A stretch of DNA of 30,357 nucleotides. Origin: an uncultured Methanosarcinales archaeon (lineage in GTDB: Archaea > Nanobdellota > Nanobdellia > Woesearchaeales > CAZPDB01). The position numbers were made by a program, and so were the translations under genes. The notes beneath the pieces are model-generated. The model was not told where the DNA came from. It saw only the letters and a list, made by a program, of their open reading frames with translations, and ran no database searches. Positions 5,879 to 26,811 of this stretch are shown here, piece after piece; position 1 is the stretch's first letter, and each line of letters opens with the position of its first letter. The stretch is taken from the NCBI GenBank assembly GCA_964585285.1, contig CAZPDB010000004.1, forward strand, positions 2,839 to 33,195, written 5' to 3'.

Positions 5879-5900
5879 TTTTCAGGTTTGTTTCTTAATT

Positions 5901-6913: not shown

Positions 6914-7232
6914 GGCCCTATCAAAACCCGCTCCACCATTAAAAACCTGCGCCACTCCTCTCTCCCAATCCATTGGTCTGATGTTTTCCAGAAAAAAGAT
7001 TTGCCTTTTCATTCTTAAAAAACCAAAAAGAATTTCCTTACACAATTGGTTTGTCTTTTATCCCTTAACAATTTATTTTTTCAACAAAAACAAACAATTA
7101 ATAGAAAAAAAAGAAAAATTCTTGCCTTTCTCCTTCTACACCTCTAAAAAACCAGCCCAGTATGTTCTTGAAATTCCTTTTTCTTGGAAAGATTTATACT
7201 CTCTTCAACAACTCAGACAATTCATCAAATAA
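6912..7232 (+). CDS. DUF192 family protein
   Basis: ATPLSQSIGLMFS..CLFI..HNWFVFYPLTIYFFN..PAQYVLE matches the DUF192 pattern GLMFR..MLF..PLDIIF..YVLE. Confidence 0.72.
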   Translation: MALSKPAPPLKTCATPLSQSIGLMFSRKKICLFILKKPKRISLHNWFVFYPLTIYFFNKNKQLIEKKEKFLPFSFYTSKKPAQYVLEIPFSWKDLYSLQQLRQFIK

Positions 7233-7288
7233 TTCTTATAGAAAATATTAAAGACTAAAAGATTTAATATGTTAAGCATATGGGGTAC

Positions 7289-7340
7289 TAAAATTAAAAT
7301 TAAAGTTAAAATTAAAGTTAAAATTAAAATTAAAATTAAA
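7289..7340 (+). repeat. Hexamer microsatellite (TAAAAT/TAAAGT), 8 full units plus a partial unit
   Basis: Read directly from the sequence. Confidence 0.95.
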
Positions 7341-7541
7341 CATGAGTGTATTATCTGCAACAGATGTAAAAAGGAAAGGATTGGCAGGCTCAGTCAAAGA
7401 ATTGAAGATTTTACTAGCATAGTTTGGTGATTTCTTTTTCTATTTCAAAAAAAAACAAAAAACTTAATAAGTAAGTTGAGAATTCTTTTTTTATCCTATC
7501 AGTGGGGGCGTAGCATAACCTGGCAGTGCGGCCGGCTCCAG

Positions 7542-7590
7542 TTTTGGTGCGCTGAGCTCAATTATGAGCAATGATTTACACATTGGCGGC
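7542..7590 (+). ncRNA. 49-nt canonical tRNA intron with a C'/D'-type K-turn and candidate guide
   Basis: CTGA, GCTCA/TGAGC stem, AAT bulge, GA, TT. The BHB central helix CTCC/GGCG has one mismatch. Confidence 0.75.
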
Positions 7591-7611
7591 ACCGGCTGAT
7601 CTGAGTTCAAA

Positions 7612-7654
7612 ACAGAAGCAATAAATCAATAGAAGATTTTTGTTTCTCTGAAAC
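7612..7654 (+). other. 43-nt non-canonical tRNA intron at 59/60
   Basis: Central helix TTCA (7606-7609)/TGAA (7649-7652), bulges AAA and ACT, intron helix AGAAGCAA/TTGTTTCT after one C.C mismatch. Confidence 0.88.
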
Positions 7655-7724
7655 TCTCAGCGTCCCCACTTTTCATTTTCATTTTCAAAACCTTTTTATA
7701 GCAGCTTGAGTTTTTTTCTTTCTT

Positions 7725-8873: not shown

Positions 8874-8947
8874 AATTCTCTTTACTCAAAAAATAGTTAG
8901 GCTAAATATTATAGAAAGATTATATCATAGAAAGATTATTAATTCAA

Positions 8948-11317
8948 TTAACTTAACAAGTTTTCTAAAGTACTTCTTTTTCTTTTTTTCTTGGATTTAT
9001 ATTTAACTATAACTATGGCTATCAAGCCAGTAAAAAGGATTAGCACAAAGAGCATTCCTAAAAGCAAGGGCAAGTTTTCTTTGTGTTTGAAGATTGCTTT
9101 TATTTTGTCCTTAACCATTTCTTTCCTGCTTGCTCTGTCTTTTACCTGCACTCTAAAACTTTCTTCCACTAAAGCTCCTTGTTTGTCTGTGACATAAACT
9201 GTGATTTCTTCTTCTCCAAACCAGTGCTGGCGAGGTATGATTACTAATTCATCTTGGTTAAGCTTTGCCCAGATGTGTTCTGTGCTGGTAGCTTCAAAAT
9301 AAAGAGTGTCATTATCCGGGTCTTTGAAGTATTCAGAGAGATTCATCTTCACCCCAGTGTTCTTAAGCATTATCTGAGCTTCTATCTCTCCTGGAGTTAG
9401 TTCAGTTAACATATTATCCCTTATATCTAAAGGATAAGATAATCCTATAATCAGTGCTTCAATACCTAAACCTATTATTGCCAGACCTAATACTAGTATC
9501 ACTGTCCACAATAAGGCCCAGTTTCTTTTTTTCTTAATTCTCAGTAATCTTTCCTTTTTTTTGGTTTTTTTCTTTTTTGATTTTTTTCTTTTGATTATTA
9601 ATAAGCTTAACAGAATTATAACTAAAATAATAATTAAAAGAATAATTGCTGTCCATACCGGATGATTTTTTATTGGCCTTGATTTATTCTTAGTCCATAC
9701 CCACCAAATTGGTTGTTCAAAAGAGGTTATTTTCACACTCAATGTTTGGCTGAAAAGAGCGTCTTTTCCTTCCCAATCTTTTACCTTGGCATAAATATCA
9801 ACTGTGTAACTTCCTTTTTCTGCTTCTTTTCCATTAGTATAAAGATCTATTGTTTTTATCTCTTCTGAGTTTAATTCAATTTCAGTTTTGTTTAGGCTAA
9901 CCCATTCTGGTCCTTCCAGTGATAGTTCTATCTCCACCTCCCGGCTGCCTTTATTTTCTACACTGACAGGGATAATGATATTGGACTTGTTAGTCACGAT
10001 TTTTGGATTGTTCTCAGCTATACCTATATTATAATAATCATCTATCATTATTTTTTTGGTTAAGTTTTTGGCATAGAGACCTTTTTCTGCTACTCCTTCC
10101 AGAATCAGTTCATTTTCTCCCAGGTATTCTTCTGGCCAGTTCCATCCTTCTTCCCCTTTCCCTAATACTAATTGAACATATTCTTTTTCATAAGGTTCCA
10201 GCTCAACTTTTTTCTTTTCTAATTGAGCCATTTCGCTGATAGCACTGATAGAATCCGCGCTGCTTAATTCTAAACTGACAGTGTTAGTAACATTATATAA
10301 GTTGCTCACTTCTATCCAGTAAATCCTCTGTCCTTCTTCCTCTCCAAAACTTATTTCAGCTGATTCTTCAAAAACAAGGCTCACATTTTCCAGCTCTGTT
10401 CCATCCCCTGCACTTTCATTTAATCCATTTTCCTCTACCTCATTTTCATCTCCATTATTTTCATTATCTGTCTGATTTGCTCCACTTTCTTCTCCTGTTA
10501 ATTCTTCTCTTAGCGTCCCAATCTTCAGCTCATAATCATAACAGGTTTGGTCTATTTCTAATTGAAAAGGAGTCTCTGTTTTCAGATTGCCATTCTGAGA
10601 AATAATTTCTAAGGTAAAATTTTGTTCTCCTGTTAATGAGCAGGGCAGGTCAAAATAGACATAAAGAGTCTTATTAGTTTCTCCTGGCATTATGCTGCTG
10701 GCTTCACTTAAAAGAATATGTTTGGTGAATGGTTTGACTGTGTAGCTAAATTCATCAGCGAATTTTTGTGTGTTTTGGATTATAAATGGATAGCTGGTCA
10801 AGGTGCATGGACAGGCTTTTGGTTCTTCTGGGGGCAGAGCAATAACATTAGGACACTTTTTAACTTCTATCTCCTGTTTTAACTGTTTTTTTAATCCTCC
10901 CAAAGTCTGAATATTAGTTATCAAGGAATATTTTTTTTCTTTATAATCGCACGGAATAGTTATAGTGTTGTAGATATAACCTGTTTCACCTTCATTTATA
11001 GTAATAATTGTTGGGGCTGTAGAAGTCAAAGCAGCCATATCTCCTTGAGTGCTTATTGTGTAAGTAGTTGGCCCTCCTTTTTTTTGAGTTAACCCACTTC
11101 CTCCTAGTTCATAAGTCACTATGTCTGAAGCAGTATTTGTCAGGGTTATTCTGCTCAGATAGGTTCCGCAGGCACAAACAGTTGGGCTGGCTTCTGCACT
11201 GGCTGTAAAATCTTCAGCTGCTGCTAATCCAGAGCTATTGATAAGAATTAAAAAGATTAAACTTAGAATAGAAAGAAGGAATATCTCCAGTGTCTTGCCT
11301 TTCTTAGCCTTAACCAT
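8948..11317 (-). CDS. Surface protein: signal peptide, Cys-paired Ig-like ectodomain, three TM helices and a cadherin-like domain
   Basis: Signal ending LAAA, beta-rich ectodomain with Cys pairs and sequons, TM-Lys loop-TM, NLSEYFKDPDNDTL..VTDKQG, final TM and basic tail. Confidence 0.8.
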   Translation of the reverse strand: MVKAKKGKTLEIFLLSILSLIFLILINSSGLAAAEDFTASAEASPTVCACGTYLSRITLTNTASDIVTYELGGSGLTQKKGGPTTYTISTQGDMAALTSTAPTIITINEGETGYIYNTITIPCDYKEKKYSLITNIQTLGGLKKQLKQEIEVKKCPNVIALPPEEPKACPCTLTSYPFIIQNTQKFADEFSYTVKPFTKHILLSEASSIMPGETNKTLYVYFDLPCSLTGEQNFTLEIISQNGNLKTETPFQLEIDQTCYDYELKIGTLREELTGEESGANQTDNENNGDENEVEENGLNESAGDGTELENVSLVFEESAEISFGEEEGQRIYWIEVSNLYNVTNTVSLELSSADSISAISEMAQLEKKKVELEPYEKEYVQLVLGKGEEGWNWPEEYLGENELILEGVAEKGLYAKNLTKKIMIDDYYNIGIAENNPKIVTNKSNIIIPVSVENKGSREVEIELSLEGPEWVSLNKTEIELNSEEIKTIDLYTNGKEAEKGSYTVDIYAKVKDWEGKDALFSQTLSVKITSFEQPIWWVWTKNKSRPIKNHPVWTAIILLIIILVIILLSLLIIKRKKSKKKKTKKKERLLRIKKKRNWALLWTVILVLGLAIIGLGIEALIIGLSYPLDIRDNMLTELTPGEIEAQIMLKNTGVKMNLSEYFKDPDNDTLYFEATSTEHIWAKLNQDELVIIPRQHWFGEEEITVYVTDKQGALVEESFRVQVKDRASRKEMVKDKIKAIFKHKENLPLLLGMLFVLILFTGLIAIVIVKYKSKKKRKRSTLENLLS

Positions 11318-11439: not shown

Positions 11440-12702
11440 TTAGTAGTAGGCTTGTCCTGAGATGTCTTCCTCTTCTTCTCCGCCTTTAAGTTTAGTGAAC
11501 AACACTATCAGTCCAATTATCACTAACAAAGCGATAAGCACGTAGAGGGTTACTTCTAGTCCCTTGATCAGTCCTTTGTCTCCACTGCCAGCTTTGACAT
11601 TAGCTGTCATAGTCACTGCATATTCTTGTTCTCCATCATTTAGTTTAACAGAGAACATTTTTGCTCCTTCTGCTGCCTCTTCACTTGGAGTCAGATAGAC
11701 ATAGATAGTTTGTGTTCCTTGTCCAGCAACTGAAATTGTATTAGATGGCTGTACTTGAACACTTGCCCATCCTTCTACTCCTTCAACACTCACCACAAAG
11801 TTTTTGCTTTGACTGGCTGGGTTGCTGATGGTTATTGGGAAAACAGCAGCTGTTCCTGCATTGACATCAGCAGACTGTGCTCCAACAGTAACACTTGGTT
11901 TAGCCTCAACATCAATAATTGGAATATCGCAGGACTCATCTTCTGTCACTAGGATATCATCTTCAACTTCATAACTCTCGTATCCCTCGTCGTATTCTAC
12001 TTCTACTTCCACACTGTATCTTCCGCCTGGAGAACAGTCTGGGATTCTCAAGTAGATTGGTTCTGAGAGGGTGCTCTCATCATATTCTAATTCGTCAATA
12101 TAAGTGGATTGTTCAACTCCGAGTTCTGGGATTCTTACTGTTACTTTGATTGCTTCCTCATCTTTTTCTCCCAAGTTCTTAACCCGAACATTAGCCACTA
12201 ACAATCTGCCTGCTTGAACACTGTGGGCTGGAGTAAAAACAACATCTCTAATCTTAAGCTGATGTCTTTCCACATCAAGTTTGAGATTAAAGTTTTCAAC
12301 TTCTTCATCTCCATATCTGTCAGCTACAACTACCCTTAATTTGTAGTCGTCTTCATCCACCTTGTCTGGCAGGTGCAATTTTAATTTCTTTACATACTTA
12401 ACTCCTGATTCCATATCTGAGATGTGTTCAAAATCTGCAATTCTTTCATGGTCATTATACTCATAACCAAAGATGAATGCAGCAATTTCCACATCAGAAA
12501 GATTATCCTCAGCTACAATTTCAACTCTTACTTCAAAGTCTCCATCTCTTATTAAGTCAAGTCTGTTGACTCCATTTGGTTCAACCTCAGTGCCGTCAAC
12601 CTGCACTTCGGTGATATTTACTGGCAGTGCCTGAGCAATTCCTACCAAAGCAAGTATGCTTACCAGGAACAACACTAAAACTCCTATTTTTCTTCCTTTC
12701 AT
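11440..12702 (-). CDS. S-layer-like protein with CARDB/NEW3-like Ig folds and a C-terminal TM anchor
   Basis: Signal ending IAQA, about three acidic beta-sandwich domains, C-terminal TM then EEEEDISGQAYY. GGGGGTAG SD-like sequence and a consensus promoter upstream. S-layer role is inferred. Confidence 0.7.
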   Translation of the reverse strand: MKGRKIGVLVLFLVSILALVGIAQALPVNITEVQVDGTEVEPNGVNRLDLIRDGDFEVRVEIVAEDNLSDVEIAAFIFGYEYNDHERIADFEHISDMESGVKYVKKLKLHLPDKVDEDDYKLRVVVADRYGDEEVENFNLKLDVERHQLKIRDVVFTPAHSVQAGRLLVANVRVKNLGEKDEEAIKVTVRIPELGVEQSTYIDELEYDESTLSEPIYLRIPDCSPGGRYSVEVEVEYDEGYESYEVEDDILVTEDESCDIPIIDVEAKPSVTVGAQSADVNAGTAAVFPITISNPASQSKNFVVSVEGVEGWASVQVQPSNTISVAGQGTQTIYVYLTPSEEAAEGAKMFSVKLNDGEQEYAVTMTANVKAGSGDKGLIKGLEVTLYVLIALLVIIGLIVLFTKLKGGEEEEDISGQAYY

Positions 12703-12793
12703 TTTATCCTACCCCCTTCAAATTTTTTGAAGATATTGTTTCTTATTTTTTTAGGAACATAACTTCTTCTTTATCGTCAAGTAACTTCCACCA

Positions 12794-12811
12794 ATATTTA
12801 AATCTTTCGCT
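12794..12811 (-). promoter_or_regulatory. BRE + TATA upstream of the S-layer-like gene
   Basis: Minus strand AGCGAAAGATTTAAATAT, identical to 25391-25408. Confidence 0.7.
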
Positions 12812-13020
12812 TTTTTAGTATATTGGAGTAGTTACATAAGTTCACTATTCTTAAGTTGTTTTTGTCTGGTTAAGTCCTCTGAATACTCTTGGTTTTCTCT
12901 TATTCCACCTATTTTTAGAAGCTTTCTTAGAAGCTTTTTCCAAAAGACTTGCTGTTCTTTTGAATTTTTAAGTTTTCTTGTCTTCTAAAAAATACTTTGA
13001 TTCATAACTTTTTTATGATA

Positions 13021-16000
13021 CTATTCTATAATTTTCACTTCTTGCCAGAGGATTCTTCTTTGTTCTCCATCTTCATTAATAGTTATCATAACCGGATAAA
13101 TTCCTGGTTTGGTTCCCGCTGGTATTCTCACTGCTCCCACTTTAGTCACTCTTTCATCATGTTCCAGTTTGAATGGACCGTATTGTCTGTACACCCCTAA
13201 CTCTGGCAGGGCAATTAACACTTTTGTCTTTCCCATATCATAATAATCATTATTTCTGAAATTTACACTCACCAACAAATCTTCTCCTGGACGTACTTCC
13301 CCTCCGTTGATAAACTCTACAAGAGAGAGATAGATTTTTCTTCTTGGCAGATGCTCTTTAGGAGGTACCATCACCCTTATCGTGAATGATTGTCTGTCAT
13401 TACTGGTATTCCCTCTTGTTCTAGCTTCAACTACTACTTTGTTGCTTCCTACTTGCTTCTTCTTTGGTGTCCAGACAATTAAACCATTTTTTTTATTAAT
13501 GGTCATGCCCCCTGGCTTATCTACCAGTTCATAAATTATTTCTTCTCCGTCTGGATCTACTGCATCCACATCATATTTGTATACTGAGTCAAACTCATTA
13601 GGATCATCAATTAAAAAGTCAGTTATTGGGGTGGAAATAATTCTCACTCCCCTATCCATCTCTCTCACCCTTACTTCAACAACTTCTTCCACACTATGAT
13701 TGCCATCACTCACCCTGACCACAAATTCATAGACTCCGCTATCTTCAAATCCAGTCTGCCATTCAAATCTATTTCCCACACCTTCTAAACTAACTTGTTT
13801 AAATCTAGTGTCATTAATTGAATAAATAAGTTCTTCCTTGGGAGTTTCTTCATCACTGGCATTGATAATAATGACTGCTGTCTCATTTTCCAGCACATCT
13901 AAAGAACCATAAATAGAATTTATTTCCGGAGCATCATTTTCAGGGTTAATAGTTAAAATAAATTCTGATTCAGCAGCCAAGTCCCACACCTTTGCTTCTA
14001 TCTTAAGGCTGGTGTTGCCATAGACATTCTCATAACTATTACAATCAAGATAATGTTCATTAATAATTGAGCAGGAAACTACTCCTTCATTGCTTGTATT
14101 GGCTGAGAATTCCACCAAACTACTATCATAAAAAGTTAAATAATCCCAAAGGTTTATTTGCCAGTTGCCAAAGTCTTCACTCAAATTTACATTTGGCATC
14201 TCTTCTAAGATCAATGCTGGAGAACCAACATTGACAGGAATGATTTCTTCCACTCTTCTCTCATCCGCATCTATCACTCCCACTCTAATCTGGCCGTTTC
14301 CCGGAGCTTGAGACCTCACTCTTAGGCTTTTCTCACCCTCACTAACATTTACAGTCTCAACTTCAAATACGCCTTCACCACCTTCAGTTATTATTTCCAT
14401 TTCAATTTCTCCTTCTATATCCCTGGCTCTCACAGTTACATTTTCTCCTTCTGGCAGTATTAAATTAACCTCATTAGGGCCTATTTCTATTTCTGGTGGA
14501 TTGTTAAGAATTTCTAAATCCATTTCCCATGAATCTTCTAATGTATAAGGCATTGAAACAGGCATTGAAACCAGCCTATAACCAATCTTTAATTCACCCT
14601 CTCCAGTCTCTGCTGTTACTGGAAGGGTTATCATAGCTGAGAAAGTCTCTTCTTCAAGGATGATATCATTCTCATTAATACTGAATATTTCATTTCCTTG
14701 AGAATCATAGATTGTTAAGTTTAGTTCACCTTCTCTGTGATTAACATATTCTTCGTCAAGATGATTATATATCTTAAAATTAATTTCTTCTTCTCTACCC
14801 CTATAAATTTCTTCAGCTAAGGAGCCTATTTCCAAACTTAATCCTGTTTCAATCACTTCATAACTAATCTTGTCCATTATCTGGTAACCTTGGTATTCAA
14901 GAGTAAAGCTAATCTCGTGTTCTCCTACACCAGAAACTATCCACGAACCAGAACAGGTTCCATCCTTATCAGAAGAACATTCATCCTTTTCTACTCCATT
15001 ATCATTAAAAGTAATTTCTGCTCCTTCAGCTGGATTATTATCATAATCTATTATAATCTCGCAGGTTTGTCTTTCTCCTTCAACCAGCCTGTCAAAAAGG
15101 CAAGTAGCAGAATAATTTATTTTCTCTGGGTCAAAAGATTCAATAACTTCAACTTCAAATTCAGTTTGAGCACATTCTTGGTCTAAATCACAGACTTCCA
15201 CACTTATTTTAATCTCTCCTTCTGCTAAAGCTTCTATGATTAGAACTTCTTCTTCAATCCTTGCTCCTACTATCTCATTATCCTCTACATCAATAACTTT
15301 CCATTCCAGAATTTCTTGATCTTCAACATCAACTGCCTTTCCTTCTAAATTAATTTCTCTTCTTTCTTCAATTTCTAATTCCAACTCTTCAAATTCTCCA
15401 ACAACCTCTGGAGGATTGTTCATGACCATGATAGTTACTTCTCTTTGTCCGCTGGTTTCATCTTCAAAATTAACTGCAAATGTTTTTAACAAAGTTTCGT
15501 CAATAAAATCATGATTAGCCGGAATCACTCCTTCAAACCTATAATAATCACCAACCAATCCCTCAGCATCCAACTTCAACTCTCCGCCAGCACTACTTCT
15601 TAAAACTGCGCTGGTCACAATGCTTTCATCACTCACCAACACATTCCCCTCATTCAAATCACGAACCCTAAAACTAACATAAATATCTCTGCTCCGATAA
15701 AACTCATCACTCTCCACACTATAACCACTATCATTATACACTCCCAAATCAGTAATGTTATACCTGGAACTAAACACACTATAACCAAAACTAGGCTCAT
15801 CATCCAAATCAGGCACAAACTCAGGGAACAACTGAGCAGTAGCATAAACCTCATAATCTCCCAGCTCCTCCTCTGTCCAGCTCGCACTACAACCACCACT
15901 CAACTCATCAGTCAAACACTCACCAACCCAAACATCATCATCCCTAACTCCAACCATACCATCCTTCTGATAAAAATTAACTTCCACCCCTCCCACAGAT

Positions 16001-19000
16001 GTTTCTCCTGCATTAACCATCACATTACAAGTCTGCCTTTCATCAACTGTCACAATCTCATCACAATCAATACTCTCCACTTCCAACTCATTACCCCTAA
16101 CACTAACCCCAACAATTTCTTCATCAAAATCCCCATCAAGATCAACCAGATGCAAAACAACATCAGCTTCACCAACACTCTCCCCAACCAAACTCAAAAT
16201 CTTTCCTCCTCCAAGATTAACCCCAACCACATCTTCATCAAAATCAACCAACTCCCAACTCAAATTCTCCCCACTATCCTCCAAATCAAACTCATACTCC
16301 TCCAAATTAAACAATCTCTCCTCACCCACTCTTAAATCAATCTCACCTAAATCCCAACCAACAACCTCTGGAGGATTGTTCATGACCATGATAGTTACTT
16401 CTCTTTGTCCGCTGGTTTCATCTTCAAAATTAACTGCAAATGTTTTTAACAAAGTTTCGTCAATAAAATCATGATTAGCCGGAATCACTCCTTCAAACCT
16501 ATAATAATCACCAACCAATCCCTCAGCATCCAACTTCAACTCTCCGCCAGCACTACTTCTTAAAACTGCGCTGGTCACAATGCTTTCATCACTCACCAAC
16601 ACATTCCCCTCATTCAAATCACGAACCCTAAAACTAACATAAATATCTCTGCTCCGATAAAACTCATCACTCTCCACACTATAACCACTATCATTATACA
16701 CTCCCAAATCAGTAATGTTATACCTGGAACTAAACACACTATAACCAAAACTAGGCTCATCATCCAAATCAGGCACAAACTCAGGGAACAACTGAGCAGT
16801 AGCATAAACCTCATAATCTCCCAGCTCCTCCTCTGTCCAGCTCGCACTACAACCACCACTCAACTCATCAGTCAAACACTCACCAACCCAAACATCATCA
16901 TCCCTAACTCCAACCATACCATCCTTCTGATAAAAATTAACTTCCACCCCTCCCACAGATGTTTCTCCTGCATTAACCATCACATTACAAGTCTGCCTTT
17001 CATCAACTGTCACAATCTCATCACAATCAATACTCTCCACTTCCAACTCATTACCCCTAACACTAACCCCAACAATTTCTTCATCAAAATCCCCATCAAG
17101 ATCAACCAGATGCAAAACAACATCAGCTTCACCAACACTCTCCCCAACCAAACTCAAAATCTTTCCTCCTCCAAGATTAACCCCAACCACATCTTCATCA
17201 AAATCAACCAACTCCCAACTCAAATTCTCCCCACTATCCTCCAAATCAAACTCATACTCCTCCAAATTAAACAATCTCTCCTCACCCACTCTTAAATCAA
17301 TCTCACCTAAATCCCAACCAACAACCTCTGGAGGATTGTTGAGTATCATCACTTCAACATCTCTTTGCCCGCTTGATTTGTCTGTATAATTGATGACCAG
17401 ACTTGTTAAGATACTTTCATCAATAAAATCATGGGTTAATGGGATTCGGGCTTCATAATGGTACCAGCTGTCAGAGAATCCTTTCTTATCAAATTCAAGC
17501 ACTCCTCCTGCTGCCGGGCTGCTTAGTCTTACTTCGCTCACTACTTCATTCTCAATTAGTTCCCCTGTAAATATCTCTTCTACTTGGAATCTGACATAAG
17601 CCCACTCTCCTCTGTAAAAAGTTTCATCTTTAGTGCTGAAATCAGCATTTTTTGAGATTTCCAGATTAGTGATATTATATTTTGAACTATAGACTTCAAA
17701 GCTGGCTGTTGGTTCTTTTAATTCCCAATCTTTAAACCCATCTTTTTCAGCTCCAGCATAAACAGTCCATTCTCCCAGCCTTCCCGGACTAAAAACTACT
17801 CCGCAAGCTCCAGTAATCTCATTTGTTGAACAACTACCTAAGCTTTCATCATTATCATAATTATAAAGTTCAACTTCTACCTCTCCAATCATTCTACTAT
17901 CAGCCTCTATCTTAGCATTGCATATCTGAGTGTTATCAACAGTCATTATAGGGTGAGCACAGTTAAGAGAAACAATAACTAATTGATTATCAAGCACCTC
18001 CACTCTAAAGATTCTGGCTTCCATTCCTTGGTCACTATCTACCACAGTCACAGTTATCTGGCTTGTTCCCTTAGCTTTTCCTTCTATCACCAATTCTTCG
18101 CCCAACACTTCTACTCCTACTATGTCCTGAGCAGAACTTTCTGCAGTGATAATTAATTGGCCATACTCATCTTCCAAATCACTAATTTTCTCTCTCAGGT
18201 TTATTCTTTTTTCTTCTCCAGTGTATAATTCAATATCAGAAATGTCTCCTATCTCTGGTTCGTTGTTCCAGAGATAAATCTCTTTGCTTCCTTGACCAGC
18301 AGTATTATCAATAAAATTAAAGGCAAAACTAAAGACCTTGCCTGGCTGGTTCTCATCTGTTGTTAAATAATCATCTGTTAATGGGATTGCTTCCAGATAG
18401 TATCTATAATATAATTGTTCTGCTGATATTTGGGCTAAGGCTGGAGAACTTAAAGTTGAAGCATCTTTATAACTTTCTACTTGTCTTACAAACATCCCGC
18501 TTCCTACTGGTTCTAACCCAATAAAATCAAAATAAAGTGGCTCAGCATTTTTCATTCTCAAGAAAACTTCTGTCACTACTTCCTCATTCACAAACTCTCC
18601 ACTGAATTTGTCTTTAACTTGGAATTGAACAAAGACCTGATCTCCTCTGTAAAATTCATTTACGCGATTAACAAAATCACTCTCATTATAAGTGTCCAGA
18701 TTAATTATTTGATATTGTTCTGCCCAGACTTTGAATTCTTTTTCTGTACTGCTCCTTGCTGATTCATATCCTTCTTTCTCAGCTTCAACATAATAACTGT
18801 AATTTGCTGGTTCAAGATTAATCACTGGTTCAATTATGACATAACCATAATCATCTGTTTCTCCACTACCAATACTTGTGCCATCTCCTAGTTTGAATCC
18901 AACCTCTGCCCCGGTAACCATATATTCTTCATCATCACTAGTGCTCACTCCAACCCTAGCTGTGCAGTATTGTTCTTTTCCCTGAACCACATTCGGATTA

Positions 19001-22000
19001 CAGCCAAATTCTTTTATTTCCAGTTCTGCTCGAACAGTTATTGGTTTAGTGATTTCATCACTTAATCCTCCCTTATCAGTCACTTCTAAAATAACATCAT
19101 AAACACCCGGCTCTTCATAAACATGACTCACTCCCACCCCTTCACCATCTGAACCATCACCAAAATCCCATTCATAACCAACAATATCCTCACAATTTCT
19201 CCCTTCACAATCAGGGTCAGCGCTTTCTGAAGTAAAAACCACCTCTTCAAAAACAAGTGGTTCTAAAGGTTCATAAACAAAATCAGCTTCAGGCCTATCA
19301 TTAACATTAACCACCCTAACCAAAACATCCTCACTCACAACCCCACCATCAGTATCATTAACAACAAAACTTATTATCTCTTCATCATCAACAAATCCTT
19401 CTAAAGGAATAATAGTTGCCACCCTATTAATTATCTGCACCCCGACATTTTCACTCCCAGAAGCACTCCATAACAATTCCTCATCTGGTGTTTCCACATC
19501 TTCAACATAATCATCTAAAACCAAATTCTCTACCTCATATTCACCAATCCTTACCACTTCAGGTAAACTCACACTTGGCAGATTATTATAGACTCTCACA
19601 CCCAAATCTTCCTGACCAGCTGTGCCATCTTCCAGATTAAAAACAAAACTAAACACCTTGCCCTCTCCCAAAAAGTCATCAGTCAATGGTATTGACTCCA
19701 AATAATAACGATAATAAACAGGTCCCTGACCAGCACTATTAACCTCAGAATATTGTTCTCCAATCATCACATAAGCACCTACCTCTTCCAAATATTCTTC
19801 AAAATAAAGAGGTTCATCATTATTCACCCTTAAGAAAACCTCCTTTAACAAACCCGGATCATCAACATAATCACCTGAAAACAAATCAACAATCTGGAAT
19901 TGAGCATAAACAGAATTACCCCTATAAAACTCCCTAGAAGATGTAATAAACTCATCTGAATAAACATCAAAATTAGTAATATTATACTGGTGTTCCCAAA
20001 CCCTAAACTCAAACAGCTCTGATTCTCCAGCTTCATAACCTTCCTTTCCAGCTCTAACATAAACTCTCTCTAACCCCGGCTCCCTCTCAATCACTGGATT
20101 AATATGACCATAACCTTTGAAGTTTGTCTCTACCCTACCCAATTCTTCTCCATCCTCATAAAAGAATATCAACTCTGCTCCCTCAACCGCAAACTCCCTA
20201 TCAACCAATTCAACTTTTGCACTGCAATGCTGAATCTCACCCCGAACCACGTTAGGATTGCAGCCAAACTCTTCTAATTTCAAAGCCCCACTTACCTGCA
20301 CACTCTTAACTATCTCATCACTTAATCCTCTCTTATCAGTCACTTCTAAAATAACATCATAAACACCCGGCTCTTCATAAACATGACTCACTCCCACCCC
20401 TTCACCATCTGAACCATCACCAAAATCCCATTCATAACCAACAATATCCTCACAGTTTCTTCCTTCACAGTCTTGGTCATGAGAAATTGATCTAAAATTA
20501 ACTTCATCCAAAACTACTGGGTTGAGTGGTAAATAAGCAAAATTAGCTTCAGGCCTATCATTAACTGGTTTAATAATAATCTTAAACCCTTGAGTGACAA
20601 TATTTTTACCATCAGAAACAATTAAGTCAACATTGCAAATCCCATTAAAATTAATTTCTGGGTGGATATCTAGATAATTTCTTTCATCAACCATTGCTCC
20701 GCATCTTTCGTCATCTTGTTCAAGGGAATATTCCAGGTTTCGGCTTGGTGTCTCTGCATCAATAACATAATCTGGGAAATAAAGAAGGTCATTTTTTTGT
20801 TCATCCTCATCCATAAAAATATCTTCAATCTCTTCAATCACTGGAGCATCATTAACCCAATCAACTGTTACTTGGACTGGCTCAGAATAAGCAAAAGCTC
20901 CTTCTGGATCAACCACCTTAAAAACCAGTTCTTCTCTTCCATCCCAATTGGTTTCCGGTTCTATTCTTATTAAGTGTTCTTCACTATTTGGGATAACATC
21001 CACAGTTAGATGCCTGTGCTCGCCAGTTTCCTCTACTTCCAGTGCAGAGTCAGCATCATCTTCATCATTTATGTAAGGATCAATATCAAATTCGTAAACT
21101 TCATCTTCCTGCATATTGATATCTGGGATCTTTGTAAACATTGGCGCTAGATTATTTTTTCTCATTGAAACATAAATATAATAATCAGCAAATCCTAAGT
21201 CAAATTCTCCTGAGTTTTTGGTATAGTCTGGATGGACAATTTCATAGATATATTTTCCAGGTTCAAGATTAATTCTTGCCTCTCCCTGTTCATCACTGAC
21301 TGCATTCCAAATATCAGATCTAGACTCCGTGTTTATTACTTCAACTGAAGCTCCTTCAATTGCATTGTTCGTATCAATCTCCTTAATCAAGAAATTCACA
21401 TCATAGGTTGGGACTGGCTGAACATAGATTTCTTCTTCCAGAGTCTCTTCAAAATTATTTAATCCCTCACAAAGATTGCTCTCTCCCAGACCTCTAACTC
21501 GGATAATATACCGGCCAGTTTCTTCAGGAGTCCAGCTAAAACTTATCTCTGTTGGCTCATAAGCATCCGCATTCTCTTCCACTACCAAATCGTTTTCAAA
21601 AACAATCTCTCCTGTTTCTTTTTTAACAATCTCATAATTAACCCTGGTTGGGATTGGTGTGTATTGATCAAGATTATCCATATAATTGCTTGTCTTTTTA
21701 TAATATATAGTTAGTTCATCTCCAACAATTGGGAACTGTTCATCTGTTCTTAGATTATTCAGCAAAGTATAACATTGTCCCACTGGCCTGGCTGGCAGCA
21801 CATTGAAATTTTTATTAGTGCTTTCTGTTTCAGCACTCAAACACTGACAATCAGTCACTTCTGATTCTAAGACTGCTTTATAATTTTCTCCAGCTATAGT
21901 TGGTGTCCACATAAACCTTATTGTTTCATGTGTGTCCATGTAGATATTTAATTCCCTGCTATCCTCATAAACCATTTCTCCTTCTGGATTATAAATCTTT

Positions 22001-22614
22001 AAACGAACAATTGTCTCTGCGCTGTAAAACTCTTCTTTATACTCTTCAGGGATGTAATGTGGTGCTCTTCCAGAGGAATGGAAAGCTGAATAAGTTTCTG
22101 CATCCAGTCTGGCATCTACTTCCACTACTAATGGTTCATTTTCGTGAACAGTATTAATAATAGAAAAATCTTCAATTGGCGCGTGGCAATTTTCTGCTTT
22201 ACCTAAGTAATGGTCATAATAATAACTCATCCCTCCCCCCCAATTATTAGGTATTACTCCTCTCATTGGAGCATAGCATTCTTTGAATAAATAAATAGCA
22301 TAATCTCTTGGTTCAGAAGTGTAAGGATAAACTATTGTTACAGAGTTTTCTTCTCCAGAATTATCATTAAAGATGGGTGGTTCTTTTACTGCCCAGCACT
22401 GTTCCAGATTGTCTTCACATTCATGAACAATCATTTGCACCCCATTTAATGGTTCTCTACTGTATTGGTCATAAAAAGAATCCACTTCTCTGTTGCCGTC
22501 AGCTAAAACTATTGGTAAAAAAATCAGAACCCCAGTTAAGATAATTAAAAATAAAATATTTTTTTTGAGTGGGTTTGTTTTCATTTTAGTTTTCACCATC
22601 ATAATCTTCACCAT
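13021..22614 (-). CDS. Giant (3197 aa) secreted adhesin-like protein with PKD, cadherin-like and repeated Ig modules
   Basis: Signal peptide (true start may be 22584), two PKD domains (YEWDFGDG..SHVYEEPGVYDV), many NDAP/NNPP..DxD cadherin-like units, six FYRG-type modules, CARDB-like C-terminal domain, no C-terminal TM. Confidence 0.9.
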   Translation of the reverse strand: MVKIMMVKTKMKTNPLKKNILFLIILTGVLIFLPIVLADGNREVDSFYDQYSREPLNGVQMIVHECEDNLEQCWAVKEPPIFNDNSGEENSVTIVYPYTSEPRDYAIYLFKECYAPMRGVIPNNWGGGMSYYYDHYLGKAENCHAPIEDFSIINTVHENEPLVVEVDARLDAETYSAFHSSGRAPHYIPEEYKEEFYSAETIVRLKIYNPEGEMVYEDSRELNIYMDTHETIRFMWTPTIAGENYKAVLESEVTDCQCLSAETESTNKNFNVLPARPVGQCYTLLNNLRTDEQFPIVGDELTIYYKKTSNYMDNLDQYTPIPTRVNYEIVKKETGEIVFENDLVVEENADAYEPTEISFSWTPEETGRYIIRVRGLGESNLCEGLNNFEETLEEEIYVQPVPTYDVNFLIKEIDTNNAIEGASVEVINTESRSDIWNAVSDEQGEARINLEPGKYIYEIVHPDYTKNSGEFDLGFADYYIYVSMRKNNLAPMFTKIPDINMQEDEVYEFDIDPYINDEDDADSALEVEETGEHRHLTVDVIPNSEEHLIRIEPETNWDGREELVFKVVDPEGAFAYSEPVQVTVDWVNDAPVIEEIEDIFMDEDEQKNDLLYFPDYVIDAETPSRNLEYSLEQDDERCGAMVDERNYLDIHPEINFNGICNVDLIVSDGKNIVTQGFKIIIKPVNDRPEANFAYLPLNPVVLDEVNFRSISHDQDCEGRNCEDIVGYEWDFGDGSDGEGVGVSHVYEEPGVYDVILEVTDKRGLSDEIVKSVQVSGALKLEEFGCNPNVVRGEIQHCSAKVELVDREFAVEGAELIFFYEDGEELGRVETNFKGYGHINPVIEREPGLERVYVRAGKEGYEAGESELFEFRVWEHQYNITNFDVYSDEFITSSREFYRGNSVYAQFQIVDLFSGDYVDDPGLLKEVFLRVNNDEPLYFEEYLEEVGAYVMIGEQYSEVNSAGQGPVYYRYYLESIPLTDDFLGEGKVFSFVFNLEDGTAGQEDLGVRVYNNLPSVSLPEVVRIGEYEVENLVLDDYVEDVETPDEELLWSASGSENVGVQIINRVATIIPLEGFVDDEEIISFVVNDTDGGVVSEDVLVRVVNVNDRPEADFVYEPLEPLVFEEVVFTSESADPDCEGRNCEDIVGYEWDFGDGSDGEGVGVSHVYEEPGVYDVILEVTDKGGLSDEITKPITVRAELEIKEFGCNPNVVQGKEQYCTARVGVSTSDDEEYMVTGAEVGFKLGDGTSIGSGETDDYGYVIIEPVINLEPANYSYYVEAEKEGYESARSSTEKEFKVWAEQYQIINLDTYNESDFVNRVNEFYRGDQVFVQFQVKDKFSGEFVNEEVVTEVFLRMKNAEPLYFDFIGLEPVGSGMFVRQVESYKDASTLSSPALAQISAEQLYYRYYLEAIPLTDDYLTTDENQPGKVFSFAFNFIDNTAGQGSKEIYLWNNEPEIGDISDIELYTGEEKRINLREKISDLEDEYGQLIITAESSAQDIVGVEVLGEELVIEGKAKGTSQITVTVVDSDQGMEARIFRVEVLDNQLVIVSLNCAHPIMTVDNTQICNAKIEADSRMIGEVEVELYNYDNDESLGSCSTNEITGACGVVFSPGRLGEWTVYAGAEKDGFKDWELKEPTASFEVYSSKYNITNLEISKNADFSTKDETFYRGEWAYVRFQVEEIFTGELIENEVVSEVRLSSPAAGGVLEFDKKGFSDSWYHYEARIPLTHDFIDESILTSLVINYTDKSSGQRDVEVMILNNPPEVVGWDLGEIDLRVGEERLFNLEEYEFDLEDSGENLSWELVDFDEDVVGVNLGGGKILSLVGESVGEADVVLHLVDLDGDFDEEIVGVSVRGNELEVESIDCDEIVTVDERQTCNVMVNAGETSVGGVEVNFYQKDGMVGVRDDDVWVGECLTDELSGGCSASWTEEELGDYEVYATAQLFPEFVPDLDDEPSFGYSVFSSRYNITDLGVYNDSGYSVESDEFYRSRDIYVSFRVRDLNEGNVLVSDESIVTSAVLRSSAGGELKLDAEGLVGDYYRFEGVIPANHDFIDETLLKTFAVNFEDETSGQREVTIMVMNNPPEVVGWDLGEIDLRVGEERLFNLEEYEFDLEDSGENLSWELVDFDEDVVGVNLGGGKILSLVGESVGEADVVLHLVDLDGDFDEEIVGVSVRGNELEVESIDCDEIVTVDERQTCNVMVNAGETSVGGVEVNFYQKDGMVGVRDDDVWVGECLTDELSGGCSASWTEEELGDYEVYATAQLFPEFVPDLDDEPSFGYSVFSSRYNITDLGVYNDSGYSVESDEFYRSRDIYVSFRVRDLNEGNVLVSDESIVTSAVLRSSAGGELKLDAEGLVGDYYRFEGVIPANHDFIDETLLKTFAVNFEDETSGQREVTIMVMNNPPEVVGEFEELELEIEERREINLEGKAVDVEDQEILEWKVIDVEDNEIVGARIEEEVLIIEALAEGEIKISVEVCDLDQECAQTEFEVEVIESFDPEKINYSATCLFDRLVEGERQTCEIIIDYDNNPAEGAEITFNDNGVEKDECSSDKDGTCSGSWIVSGVGEHEISFTLEYQGYQIMDKISYEVIETGLSLEIGSLAEEIYRGREEEINFKIYNHLDEEYVNHREGELNLTIYDSQGNEIFSINENDIILEEETFSAMITLPVTAETGEGELKIGYRLVSMPVSMPYTLEDSWEMDLEILNNPPEIEIGPNEVNLILPEGENVTVRARDIEGEIEMEIITEGGEGVFEVETVNVSEGEKSLRVRSQAPGNGQIRVGVIDADERRVEEIIPVNVGSPALILEEMPNVNLSEDFGNWQINLWDYLTFYDSSLVEFSANTSNEGVVSCSIINEHYLDCNSYENVYGNTSLKIEAKVWDLAAESEFILTINPENDAPEINSIYGSLDVLENETAVIIINASDEETPKEELIYSINDTRFKQVSLEGVGNRFEWQTGFEDSGVYEFVVRVSDGNHSVEEVVEVRVREMDRGVRIISTPITDFLIDDPNEFDSVYKYDVDAVDPDGEEIIYELVDKPGGMTINKKNGLIVWTPKKKQVGSNKVVVEARTRGNTSNDRQSFTIRVMVPPKEHLPRRKIYLSLVEFINGGEVRPGEDLLVSVNFRNNDYYDMGKTKVLIALPELGVYRQYGPFKLEHDERVTKVGAVRIPAGTKPGIYPVMITINEDGEQRRILWQEVKIIE
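15398..17340. repeat. Exact in-frame tandem duplication, 960-bp unit (320 aa)
   Basis: Line-by-line comparison of 15398-16380 with 16358-17340 found no mismatch. Confidence 0.97.
19055..20472. repeat. Pair of near-identical 158-bp PKD-core repeats (19055-19212 and 20315-20472)
   Basis: Offset 1260 bp; 4 mismatches, all transitions; flanks diverged. Confidence 0.93.
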
Positions 22615-22642: not shown

Positions 22643-25231
22643 TTAAAACTTATTCTCTTCAAGCTCGCCTCTACCTCCACTTACCCCTCCTCCACCAATG
22701 CTTTGTTCAGCAGTTGCTCCAATGAATATAATATAGTTTGTTCCTAATCTTACTATGCTTTTCCAGGCTTCTGTTTGGCGGGTTTTAAATTCTTCCAGAT
22801 CAAAGGTAGCGTTGTCAAGATTGGTGGTGAATCTGCCCTGCCCATTTTTAAAAGCTACTGCCACTAAATTATCTTTATCATCAACCAACATCATCGGTAT
22901 TTCTTTGTAATCAGCAAGCATTGTTTCAAAAGCTTCTTTGGTTATACTTTCTGGTTCAAGATAATCTTTTTCCACTATTTTCTTTTCTCTAAAGCCATTT
23001 CTCACTCCAAAAAAACCATTTTTTCTTGCTTCTTCTATCTCTCTTCTGTCAGTTAAACGAGATGGATGTACTTTCTCCAATACTGCTCTTGTCCTTCCTT
23101 CTTTTGCCGCTTCTTGTTTTGGGATAATTTCTATCTGAGCATCACCTACAGAAGGATTAGCTAAATCTCTGGACATGCCTTTTCCATAGATGTTAATTTG
23201 GTGTCCTGGTTCAAACATTACTAATTGGTATTTTGTGCCTGCTGGTGCGCCACTAATTTCTTTTTCATAAATAGGCAGTCTCTCGTCTTCCACAGATTTA
23301 AGGATCTCTCCCAGATCTTCTTTAACTGCTTCTCTTGCTGCATCATAAGCTTCTTTGGTTGTTCCTCCCCTAAACAAGATTTGAGCCAGAGCTGTTGGCA
23401 ATCTTCCTTCCTTCATATATTCACCTGCTTTAATTATGTCTCCAGGCAGATTAAGGCCGTCAAGAATCACTTCTGCTGGTTTGCCTCCTGCTTTTCTCAC
23501 AGCTCTTCCAGGTAAACTAATAATTTTACCTGCTTTTCCAGCTCCTTTTTTTAAAGCTTTGATTGGATTAGAACCTTCTCCACCACTTTCCTCAACCACT
23601 CTGCTTTCTCCTCCTTCATTCCACTTTTCAAAATAAGTTGGGAGTGGGTTATTAACTACACCTTCCAGGTATCCTTGTCTCACTTTTTCTCTCTCACTTT
23701 CTGGCGCAAAATTCCTTGCCCAGATATCTGCTCCCTGCCTTAAATATTCTCTTAACCAAGGCTCTGCTTCTTCTAACTCTCCTTGTCCTTCAGCAGTCTT
23801 GTACATTTCACAGAAAGTTTCCATAAATCTCTCTTCAGCAGATGATCCAAATAAATTTTTAAAGAATTGGACAGCTGTTTTTGAATTTGGTTTTTTTCCC
23901 TGCACTATCCTTTCCAAATCCTCTTCAGAATAACTTGGTGAATAATCATCCAGAGCAGCAAAAATATCTTCTTTCTGTTTTTTCCTAATTTGTTTTTCTT
24001 CCTGCTGCGTTGACAAGCTTATTTTTTCTGGTTGGTCTTCTTTTACTTCTTTTGATAGGATTGGGGTAGTTATTTCTTGTTCTGGTTCAAAACTTTCTAA
24101 ATATCTTCCTAAATTTTCTCCCTCTAATTCTATCTCTGCTCCAGCTTTAACTCTCTGAGCTAATTCCTGGCCTCTTTCCTTGGCTTCTAAAACCTCTTTC
24201 TCTGAGCCAAAGCTTCCCAGATAATCCATTAAGCAATCATTATTCTCTTTTTCCCAGCATTCTTTGCCTTCCAAAACTGTCAGCAACCAGAGATTTTGCA
24301 GGGCTGTTCCCTCGTATTTTTCTCCAAGATTTTCCCTAACCATAGGATCTTCATTCTTAGTTTCTTGTTGCAGTACTGCTTTATACAATTCTTTTCTTGA
24401 TTCAAAATCAGAGGAGAGATTTTTTGATTTAAGATAATCAACTATTGAATTTTTATTGATTCCATCAATTCTTCCTTGTTCATCCTGAGTTTGTTCCTGC
24501 TGAATTTGCTCCACTCTTATGTTTTCACTCTTATTTTCATTTTCTGCACACACCTGACTTAGAGGTAATAAAGAGCTGGAAATTAATAATCCCGCAGCCA
24601 CTAAACCAGCAGCTGCTTGCCCCCAACCTTCTCTTGCATATCTGTTTATTCTCTTCAGTAAACTTGATTCATCTTTTCCTTTATCATAATTTGCTTGAGT
24701 GTGGCTTGCTTGAGTGCGGGTTTTACCAACAGCATCATCAATAGAAATACCAGTATAGGTTGCCTCTGGTTCTCCAACAGAACCTTCAACAGAGGATTCT
24801 AATTCTCCCGGTTCAATCAATTCCAGAGAATTTGCTGGTAAAAGATATTCTTTTAAATTTGATCTGGTTCTGTCAGCCATACTCCTTAATCGGGTATGGA
24901 CATTTTTCTTGTTTCTTTTTAAATAATTGTTAGAATTAACTTCATTGGTTAAGAGCTCATTAACAACTGCCAGGTCTTCTCTCACTTCTTCATTTATTTC
25001 TTCTGGAGCCAATTGAGTTAAGTAATCATCTAGACCTTCTAGTTTCTCATTAAGATATTTTTCCCTCTCTGTCCATTTCCATGCTCTTTTGCCGTCAGCC
25101 CGGTAATTTCCTGAAAGAATTTGAGCAACATCATCAATATATCCTCTTAAATTTTCTCTGGCTAAAGAATTTGATTCATAATTAGCTGTGTAATCATCTA
25201 AAATTGAATTCCTTGTAGCAATAATCCCCAT
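22643..25231 (-). CDS. 862-aa membrane protein of unknown function with a DUF3597-like motif
   Basis: About 200-aa N-terminal region, one hydrophobic helix (aa ~202-229), then NSIVDYLKSKNLSSDFESRKEL..YEGTALQNLWLL, and a Gly-rich C-terminus. GGGGGTAG SD-like sequence. Confidence 0.75.
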   Translation of the reverse strand: MGIIATRNSILDDYTANYESNSLARENLRGYIDDVAQILSGNYRADGKRAWKWTEREKYLNEKLEGLDDYLTQLAPEEINEEVREDLAVVNELLTNEVNSNNYLKRNKKNVHTRLRSMADRTRSNLKEYLLPANSLELIEPGELESSVEGSVGEPEATYTGISIDDAVGKTRTQASHTQANYDKGKDESSLLKRINRYAREGWGQAAAGLVAAGLLISSSLLPLSQVCAENENKSENIRVEQIQQEQTQDEQGRIDGINKNSIVDYLKSKNLSSDFESRKELYKAVLQQETKNEDPMVRENLGEKYEGTALQNLWLLTVLEGKECWEKENNDCLMDYLGSFGSEKEVLEAKERGQELAQRVKAGAEIELEGENLGRYLESFEPEQEITTPILSKEVKEDQPEKISLSTQQEEKQIRKKQKEDIFAALDDYSPSYSEEDLERIVQGKKPNSKTAVQFFKNLFGSSAEERFMETFCEMYKTAEGQGELEEAEPWLREYLRQGADIWARNFAPESEREKVRQGYLEGVVNNPLPTYFEKWNEGGESRVVEESGGEGSNPIKALKKGAGKAGKIISLPGRAVRKAGGKPAEVILDGLNLPGDIIKAGEYMKEGRLPTALAQILFRGGTTKEAYDAAREAVKEDLGEILKSVEDERLPIYEKEISGAPAGTKYQLVMFEPGHQINIYGKGMSRDLANPSVGDAQIEIIPKQEAAKEGRTRAVLEKVHPSRLTDRREIEEARKNGFFGVRNGFREKKIVEKDYLEPESITKEAFETMLADYKEIPMMLVDDKDNLVAVAFKNGQGRFTTNLDNATFDLEEFKTRQTEAWKSIVRLGTNYIIFIGATAEQSIGGGGVSGGRGELEENKF

Positions 25232-25506: not shown

Positions 25507-26784
25507 ATGGTTTTCATTATTGGTGGTGGTCCAGCAGGTCTTTATGCAGCCCATCTCTTAGCCAAAAAAGGCTTTGAGGTCACGCTTTTTGAAGAGCATC
25601 AAGAGATAGGAAAACCAATCCAATGCACAGGCATCACTACCTCTTCACTTAAAAAATATCTTCCCAGATTAGAACAGGAAAAAGAAAAAAAAGAATATTT
25701 TAAAAATAATTCAGTTGAAAGTGCTAATATTAATCCTGTCATTAACAAAATCTTCTCAGCTCAGGTTTTCTCTCCCCACCACCAGGTTGAATTTAATTTC
25801 CATCAACCCAATCTTATCCTCAACCGCCACATTTTTGATAATTACCTGGCTCAGCTTGCCCATCAGTCTGGGGCAAAAATTTTCACCTGCCATCGTTTTC
25901 TCCAGATCAAAGACAATCACCTTTTAATCAAAGATTTCAAAAACAAAAAGATAAAAAGATTCCCTTTCACTTCTCAAACAGCAGTCATTGGCGCTGATGG
26001 GCCTAACTCCAAGATTTCTTCTCTTATCAATTCTAAAAGCAATTCCCAGTTTAACAATACCCATCTTAGACCACAATTTTGGTCTGGTGCCCAAGTCCGT
26101 CTCAAACTTAAAAATGCTAACCAAGTCAAATTCTATCCTTTTCTCGGCGCTATGGCCTGGCTTGTTCCTGAAAATAATGATATTGCTCGTTTTGGAGTCT
26201 TAACCAGACAAAATCAATCCTCTTATTTTTTGCTTCAGCATTTACTCAAATCGCATTTACTCAAATCTTATCTTAAACATTCCTCTCCATCCTTTCCTGC
26301 TGAGAAAAAACCCAAAATTCTTGGATATCAGGGAGGTCTTGTGCCAATTTTTCAACCAAAACTTAAATTACAAAAAGATAATCTTTTTCTTCTTGGTGAT
26401 GCTGCCACCCTTGTCAAAGCCACAACTGCCGGCGGCATTGTCCAGTCTCTTGAAAGCGCCCGCCTTCTAACCAAAAGTCTTTCTCAAAAAAAAGATTTTT
26501 CCACATTAATAAAACCACTCAAAAAAGAACTCTTCCTTCACCTTTTAGCCAGAAGAACTATTAACAAATTCTCTGCTCAGGACTGGGATAATCTCCTCCA
26601 GTTGGTTAATCAAAAGAAAACCAAAAATTTGTTAGAAAGTTTTGACCGGGATCACTTTTCATCCTTTGCTCTGCGCTTACTTATCCATCAACCCAGGTTT
26701 ATCTCATTTGCTAAATATTTATTTCCTTTGCCTAATCTCTACCATCAATCGCAGGAGAACACAGGAGAACAACAATCTTTATAA
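25507..26784 (+). CDS. Geranylgeranyl reductase family FAD-dependent oxidoreductase
   Basis: IIGGGPAG, KPIQCTG, RHIFDNYL, IGADG and LLGDAA..TTAGGI motifs. Confidence 0.92.
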   Translation: MVFIIGGGPAGLYAAHLLAKKGFEVTLFEEHQEIGKPIQCTGITTSSLKKYLPRLEQEKEKKEYFKNNSVESANINPVINKIFSAQVFSPHHQVEFNFHQPNLILNRHIFDNYLAQLAHQSGAKIFTCHRFLQIKDNHLLIKDFKNKKIKRFPFTSQTAVIGADGPNSKISSLINSKSNSQFNNTHLRPQFWSGAQVRLKLKNANQVKFYPFLGAMAWLVPENNDIARFGVLTRQNQSSYFLLQHLLKSHLLKSYLKHSSPSFPAEKKPKILGYQGGLVPIFQPKLKLQKDNLFLLGDAATLVKATTAGGIVQSLESARLLTKSLSQKKDFSTLIKPLKKELFLHLLARRTINKFSAQDWDNLLQLVNQKKTKNLLESFDRDHFSSFALRLLIHQPRFISFAKYLFPLPNLYHQSQENTGEQQSL

Positions 26785-26811
26785 ATAAACTTTTTTTCTT
26801 CTCTTCTGATC

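Follow-up and report, generated by a model that had tools for sequence, protein, structure and literature searches.

A C-terminal Ig-like domain of a giant anchorless protein, its paralogue in a membrane-anchored neighbour, and a possible two-protein surface coat in Woesearchaeota-type archaea

How does an archaeal cell keep hold of an exported protein of 3197 aa that has no membrane anchor of its own? The question is raised by a stretch of 30,357 nucleotides, here called the window (G000:C4:2839-33195), from a Woesearchaeota-type genome of 1.0 Mb in 85 contigs that is ~90% complete. On its minus strand the gene of the giant protein (13021..22614) lies directly upstream of a gene for a 420-aa putative S-layer or envelope anchor protein (11440..12702), from which it is separated by an intergenic spacer of 318 bp (12703..13020). 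The 420-aa putative S-layer protein is referred to as SLP and the C-terminal domain of the giant as CTD. DPANN archaea live by attachment to other cells, and we know of no account of how huge, fast-evolving surface proteins are mounted on their wall-less cells. The observations below lead us to propose, with confidence about evenly divided for and against, that the giant and the SLP form a pair resembling SlaA and SlaB, in which the CTD retains a variable adhesin on a conserved anchored protein.

The giant consists of a signal peptide, a long series of shuffled immunoglobulin (Ig)-type modules and the CTD. In its N-terminal Sec-type signal peptide (aa 1-39, 22498..22614, minus strand), which is presumably cleaved, a K-rich n-region precedes the hydrophobic core (aa 15-41), and the residues VLA are followed by DG. 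This core was the sole hydrophobic segment in a hydrophobicity scan of all 3197 aa; the first-pass annotation had noted that the giant has no C-terminal transmembrane (TM) helix, and none was found. Pfam recognizes PKD, He_PIG, Big_9, MG3, CarboxypepD_reg and cadherin-like modules along the protein, and a He_PIG Ig domain (aa 3010-3081, 13372..13587, minus strand) directly precedes the CTD. The CTD itself extends up to the stop codon (aa 3083-3197, 13024..13368, minus strand). The annotation had put this tail domain at 13021-13345, which was the right place with a boundary slightly too short compared with the hidden Markov model (HMM) envelope. Against the family profile from alignment A2 the domain scores 118.9 bits over HMM positions 3-113 (aa 3085-3196), and a tail of 0 aa follows it.

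The SLP ectodomain is divided into the DUF4625-like D1 (aa 27-146, 12265..12624, minus strand), D2 with the IPELGV motif (aa 147-258, 11929..12264, minus strand) and the NEW3/FixG_C-like D3 (aa 268-372, 11587..11901, minus strand). The tail of the giant had been aligned by eye with the middle one of these domains, and the likeness is borne out at the stretches that had been named. When giant aa 3080-3197 were compared with the SLP by BLASTP, a single alignment was returned (33.1 bits, E 9e-7), in which giant aa 3086-3182 pair with SLP aa 141-238 at 28/98 identical positions (29%). The Smith-Waterman score of CTD against D2 was 84, compared with 27.3 +/- 4.6 and a maximum of 61 for 2000 shuffles of D2 (z 12.4); scores against D1 (24) and D3 (25) were both background. 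When all 5855 six-frame open reading frames (ORFs) of the genome were searched by phmmer with the CTD, the only other match was D2 (19.2 bits, E 3.5e-4) and the next-best ORF reached 8 bits. The CTD profile gave 45.6 bits for SLP D2 (independent E 2e-12) and at most 23.5 bits for any ORF outside the SLP, and the reciprocal D2 profile recovered the tail of the giant (22 bits, E 3.5e-5).

Profile comparison by hhalign, with the NEW3/FixG-like D3 as an internal control for generic Ig likeness, ranked the three domains clearly. D2 was matched at 99.4% (E 3.6e-21, 103 columns), D1 at 97.8% (E 1.2e-12) and D3 at 50.7% (E 1.6e-4), so that the likeness exceeds the generic CARDB background that had been named as the alternative. 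By these comparisons D2 is the closest relative of the CTD and D1 a more distant one. In the alignment of 35 SLP homologues P192 and L194 of the IPELG motif are invariant and G195 is present in at least 90%, and the motif is likewise conserved among the 46 aligned CTDs. Judged from these alignments, the PELGV motif common to CTD and D2 is real and family-wide.

A maximum-likelihood tree of CTD, D1 and D2 from the window and 20 related loci resolved a D1 clade (100/99) and a D2 clade (100/99), and split CTD plus D2 from D1 with the same support (100/99). CTD and D2 are ancient paralogues rather than recent copies, because no CTD falls inside the D2 clade; the same topology excludes that the CTD arose recently from the D2 of its own genome, whether by duplication or by gene conversion. 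The tree indicates a relationship that is both old and maintained.

The CTD defines a separate family. A phmmer search with the 113-aa tail, run exhaustively against 1.84 billion cluster representatives, yielded 314 representatives at E<=1e-3. The domain was re-mapped on the best 150 of these, 148 of which entered the position counts. It ends within 5 aa of the protein C-terminus in 133/148 and within 25 aa in 147/148, and a hydrophobic helix after it was found in 0/148. As anticipated in the first-pass annotation, the domain is therefore C-terminal on secreted hosts without a TM helix and not randomly placed. Most full-length CTD proteins begin with a hydrophobic signal-like segment, and 14/17 of the SLP-adjacent CTD proteins listed have a signal peptide with an AxA-like site. 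Proteins that clearly end in a CTD span 79 to about 2800 aa, besides the 3197-aa giant, and the eight hosts compared carry differently shuffled arrays of PKD, Big_9, He_PIG, cadherin-like and CarboxypepD_reg modules. At two loci, L024 (G025:C1, ORF 7159-8820) and L023 (G024:C9, ORF 5563-8976), a tail of 59-73 aa with a TM-like helix comes after the CTD. These two proteins are anchored variants of an otherwise anchorless family, and the linker and TM-like helix that follow the CTD in them put it at the membrane-proximal end.

The family also includes very small members. Four mini-proteins of ~130 aa consist of signal peptide and CTD only (P0137, P0192, P0209, P0229), and short CTD-bearing ORFs of 119-131 aa occur in ten genomes (G009, G012, G018, G019, G020, G021, G023, G032, G035, G039). 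In G009, G012 and G018, three of the four examined genomes without an SLP-adjacent CTD gene, such short ORFs are the only extra matches to the CTD profile. Since proteins of signal peptide plus CTD exist, the CTD is an autonomous extracellular unit and not a mere export signal.

Strict CTD matches (E<=1e-18) were present in 131/301 genomes of the phylum sample, and the genomes listed for them all belong to the order of the window. Most genomes have one strict copy and the maximum is three. The term surface-display tag, which had been suggested for the domain, overstates its generality, as most genomes carry a single strict CTD protein. Because there is usually one such protein per genome, a dedicated partner of the SLP is the more fitting description than a general display tag. 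With strict copies usually numbering one to three in a genome, a general multi-cargo sorting tag is rejected.

No Pfam or NCBIfam family covering the CTD was found when the 46 CTDs were scanned. Weak matches were obtained to NEW3 in 20/46, to CARDB in 3/46 and to NF033506 in 25/46; for the CTD of the giant the best Pfam match was NEW3 with 13.8 bits, below the 24.4-bit cut-off, and CARDB was not matched. Similarly, D2 scores 20.5 bits with CARDB, below the threshold of 22.7. What is shared with CARDB (PF07705), NEW3 (PF10633) and DUF4625 is the general seven-strand E-set/Ig-like sandwich, whereas the IPELG and GPF motifs, the terminal R...R.I.V and the obligatory C-terminal position are specific to the CTD. 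The full signature in A2 (46 CTDs) starts with PR.KI.I, has IPELG.R..GPF in the middle followed by PG.YDV, and ends with R...R.I.V. The AlphaFold model of the CTD is a confident seven-strand Ig-like beta-sandwich (pLDDT 88.3). An ESM Atlas feature search returned generic CARDB/NEW3-like clusters only.

The pairing of the CTD gene with the SLP gene is new relative to the first-pass annotation. Gene order was compared in 41 genomes, namely the source genome of the window and 40 relatives that represent one family of the order each, all of them different. The SLP was detected in 35/41, and in 21/35 of these a CTD gene lies directly upstream of it on the same strand, as it does in the window. Starting from the other side, 40 further top-scoring CTD matches were taken from the 301-genome phylum sample, of which 39 could be evaluated. 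A full-length SLP lies directly downstream of the CTD gene in 32/39 (82%), with ORF gaps of -16 to 365 bp, and this adjacency covers 32/35 genomes of the CTD-side sample. The recurring order is AglB, FAD-oxidoreductase, an ORF of 380-890 aa without known function, a CTD protein of 245-3197 aa (X-CTD), SLP and a membrane protein like P0003, the 789-aa protein of the window. Two independent metagenome contigs have identical gene order, and a region search with P0125 returned only two close relatives. The conserved gene pair strongly indicates a functional tie between the CTD and the anchored protein. As homologues of the P0003-like gene come after the SLP in many relatives, the conserved unit is a triad.

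Among the scored candidates, 205 homologues of the SLP reached E<=1e-3; its family, of ~420 aa, is well conserved, and the SLP is single-copy in the genome of the window. Thirty-four aligned homologues are 36-48% identical; their sources are labelled 'Candidatus Woesearchaeota' and 'Nanoarchaeota', and some of the proteins are labelled 'putative S-layer protein'. The AlphaFold model (pLDDT 85.6) shows a signal peptide, three beta-sandwiches and a TM helix at aa 376-406, close to the helix delimited at aa 377-408 (11479..11574, minus strand), after which the protein has an acidic tail ending in YY. A paralogue of 791 aa is encoded outside the window (G000:C47:2450-4822, plus strand). Besides a signal peptide and several CARDB/NEW3-like domains it has a D1-D2 pair (29 bits with the D2 profile, motif NTELGIS), an acidic linker rich in Ser/Thr, and a TM helix at its C-terminus; by its domain content it is a second anchored protein with the D1-D2 unit. 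In one relative the SLP homologue (G037:C25:6611-7366) is broken by two stops, one TGA and one TAA, with a second partial copy nearby; this may be a pseudogene or an assembly problem.

The mechanism that we consider begins with export of the giant through Sec as an anchorless, modular, adhesin-like fibre, which carries no signal for a membrane or lipid anchor. Its last 113 residues, the CTD, would act as an Ig-like retention module that holds the passenger through non-covalent Ig-Ig contacts with the membrane-distal D1-D2 of the SLP array, the contacts being of the type made by a lattice subunit domain. From this point ~3080 aa of Ig-like modules would project outward. Scaffold and adaptor would thus stay constant, and the exposed passenger could be swapped, shortened or expanded.

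Such a division of labour has a precedent, the nearest one known being the two-component SlaA/SlaB S-layer of Sulfolobales. SlaB has three beta-sandwich (Ig) domains and a C-terminal membrane helix. SlaA, the more variable of the two, lacks a TM helix and in Sulfolobus is proposed to contact a SlaB Ig domain through its C-terminal D6 (PMC10903991); according to a review, a split of this type leaves the surface protein free to evolve independently of its anchor (PMC12175726). The locus resembles this arrangement in having the gene of a large TM-less protein upstream of that of a TM-anchored three-Ig protein. The differences are several. SlaB has a trimeric coiled-coil stalk of ~130 aa, whereas in the SLP a single helix of ~30 aa (aa 376-406) comes directly after D3; SlaA forms a conserved canopy, in contrast to the modular adhesin-like arrays of about 130 to 3200 aa among the CTD hosts; and the presumed contact module, the CTD, is paralogous to a domain of the anchor itself, unlike in SlaA/SlaB. 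No Pfam match to SlaA or SlaB was obtained, and neither is among the listed top Foldseek PDB matches of the CTD or SLP models. For the giant and the SLP, lattice formation and binding of the SlaA-SlaB type are both putative. Cohesin-dockerin and S-layer homology (SLH) systems also have a terminal module on variable cargo that plugs into a conserved cell-bound scaffold, with unrelated folds and sequences; in the present case both the adaptor and its presumed receptor are Ig domains, paralogous to each other.

Several findings weigh against retention on an SLP coat. The family NF033506 (PACE-CTERM-PROT) of NCBIfam matches the SLP with E 3e-25 over model positions 251-612 of 627, but its 88.9 bits fall below the curated 110-bit cut-off, and the model, to which 25/46 CTDs have the weak matches mentioned, is longer than the SLP and itself labelled 'putative'. 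Foldseek comparison of the SLP and CTD models gave generic Ig arrays only, those for the SLP being hydin-like proteins, integrin legs and transglutaminase, with nothing specific to S-layers. Because the family match is sub-threshold and the structural matches are generic, a role of the SLP in an S-layer or lattice stays putative. The gene pairing has exceptions as well: 7/39 of the further CTD genes do not adjoin an SLP gene, and in two genomes, G004 and G020, a strong CTD is present and an SLP is not detected at E<=1e-25. Since the whole cluster, including AglB, the oxidoreductase and the membrane protein, is syntenic, the genes could be neighbours because envelope genes are co-regulated and not because their products touch. 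In 49 adjacent pairs, exploratory partial Mantel tests controlling for the other SLP domains related CTD distances to those of D1 (partial r 0.26, 0/1000 permutations) and D2 (0.18, 10/1000) and not to those of D3 (0.03, 346/1000); the signal is weak, and because the distances are saturated and common phylogeny is only partly controlled, the co-variation lends the proposed retention weak support. Complex prediction with the SLP ectodomain (aa 27-372, A1) and the CTD (A2) scored 0.00, which speaks neither for nor against binding.

The CTD could serve surface retention with a partner other than the SLP, such as the P0003-like protein, an N-glycan or a membrane lipid, and its likeness to D2 would then reflect common ancestry alone. 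That the P0003-like gene makes a triad of the cluster in many relatives, that AglB belongs to the conserved cluster, and that some CTD genes lie away from the SLP, with two genomes having a CTD and no detectable SLP, would all fit such a partner, as would the lipid- or ligand-binding Ig folds (NPC2/ML) among the structural neighbours, at template modelling scores (TM) of only 0.55-0.66. The P0003-like proteins carry D3-like and not D2-like domains, however, and their gene persists with the SLP at loci that lack the adjacent CTD gene (L031, L032), while CTD divergence follows that of SLP D1 and D2. We regard a different partner as unlikely. A further proposal is that the CTD is a terminal structural, capping or oligomerization domain, with the giant either held by an uncleaved N-terminal signal-anchor, which would put the CTD at the distal tip, or released. 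The long N-terminal hydrophobic core (aa 15-41) and the frequency of Ig-like end domains in adhesins are in keeping with it. Against this stand the TM helix that directly follows the CTD in two lineages, which puts the domain at the membrane instead of the tip, and N-termini that resemble ordinary cleavable signal peptides with AxA-like sites; moreover, a cap leaves unexplained both the 82% adjacency to the SLP and the proteins of signal peptide plus CTD. The capping proposal seems to us quite improbable.

As a beta-sandwich of ~100 aa found strictly at the C-terminus of varied secreted proteins, the archaeal domain also follows the gross logic of the CTDs of the type IX secretion system (T9SS), which are Ig-like C-terminal domains of ~100 aa on diverse secreted surface proteins, and it might accordingly be read as a sorting or secretion signal removed by dedicated T9SS- or archaeosortase-like machinery. 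T9SS CTDs are bacterial, are handled by an outer-membrane machinery, are cleaved and replaced by a lipid-linked anchor, and occur on tens of cargos per genome. They are known from S-layer proteins too, namely TfsA and TfsB of Tannerella (PMC12175726). In the archaeal family strict CTD proteins number one in most genomes and at most three, not tens; the Pfam and NCBIfam scans gave no matches to T9SS or other sorting-signal models; a signal peptide plus CTD would be a signal without cargo; and in some lineages a TM helix comes after the domain. Foldseek against the PDB found only generic Ig/E-set folds for the CTD (TM <=0.66), with NPC2, NBR1 FW, Sec63 Ig and GH3 C-terminal domains as top matches, and S-layer, cohesin or T9SS CTD folds were absent among the top matches listed. 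Removal as a sorting signal is in our view very improbable. A search of the 90%-complete genome for the exosortase/archaeosortase family PF09721 found no member, and no TM helix follows the CTD of the giant; archaeosortase-type anchoring was rejected. Retention on the SLP through D1-D2 remains the reading that we prefer.

The giant and the SLP belong to a run of four consecutive surface or membrane genes on the minus strand, in the order 862-aa protein, giant, SLP and 789-aa protein. The 789-aa P0003-like multi-pass membrane protein encoded downstream of the SLP (8948..11317) has three hydrophobic TM-like segments in addition to its signal peptide; its domains are D3-like/NEW3 and, in a loop, Big_9-like. 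In the 862-aa protein encoded upstream of the giant (22643..25231), to which no function is assigned, there is a single weak hydrophobic segment, and its DUF3597-like match is weak too (18.6 bits). BLAST at 1e-8 found no homologue of it among the same-position ORFs of relatives, which carry an unrelated-looking ORF of 380-890 aa in its place. Genes for a FAD-dependent oxidoreductase and an AglB (STT3)-PPIase fusion (together 25507..30357) flank the cluster on the plus strand, an arrangement conserved in relatives; the fusion occupies 26812-30357, and its peptidyl-prolyl isomerase (PPIase) part is C-terminal and parvulin-type.

The spacer between giant and SLP contains a T6 run at 12987-12992, 3' of the stop codon of the giant, a sequence resembling a B recognition element and TATA box (BRE/TATA), AAAGATTTAAATATT, at 12793-12807, and GGGGGT (12711-12716), which resembles a ribosome-binding site, 8 nt 5' of the ATG of the SLP. 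The SLP gene probably has its own promoter, and from these three elements we infer that an abundant scaffold and a rarer fibre are probably transcribed separately.

Within the gene of the giant, two identical tandem modules of 960 bp occupy 15398-17317. Reference copies of 300 nt at 15398 and 16358, spaced 960 nt, are 100% identical, and in the translation ~320 aa are exactly repeated. Either the fibre was expanded very recently or the duplication is an assembly artefact. It was missed by Tandem Repeats Finder, for which the longest period was 500.

Our searches of the literature found no paper characterizing an S-layer or S-layer anchoring in Woesearchaeota-type lineages, and in the literature on DPANN/Woesearchaeota S-layer anchoring and on 'PACE-CTERM' neither the CTD nor the CTD/SLP pair is described. 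Here, we defined a compact, widespread and uncurated domain of ~110 aa that is tied by homology and gene order to a conserved membrane-anchored protein. The hypothesis that the two proteins bind each other is approachable with recombinant fragments, without cultivation of the organism. A broader proposal, that the X-CTD/SLP pair is the two-component coat of Woesearchaeota-type DPANN archaea, with the CTD as a subunit mimic seated in a D2-like site and serving as a socket for the hypervariable and often giant adhesin with which each lineage would contact its host, is tentative, and we think it somewhat less than probable. If such subunit mimicry is true, it would be a previously undescribed, paralogue-based anchoring of archaeal surface proteins. 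If the pair works as proposed, it would be a second, independently evolved instance of the SlaA/SlaB principle, and the CTD would serve as a marker for the coat-mounted adhesin in each genome. As the end-domain and the gene pair recur throughout the order, this is probably the way in which fast-changing adhesins are attached to the coat of these cells.

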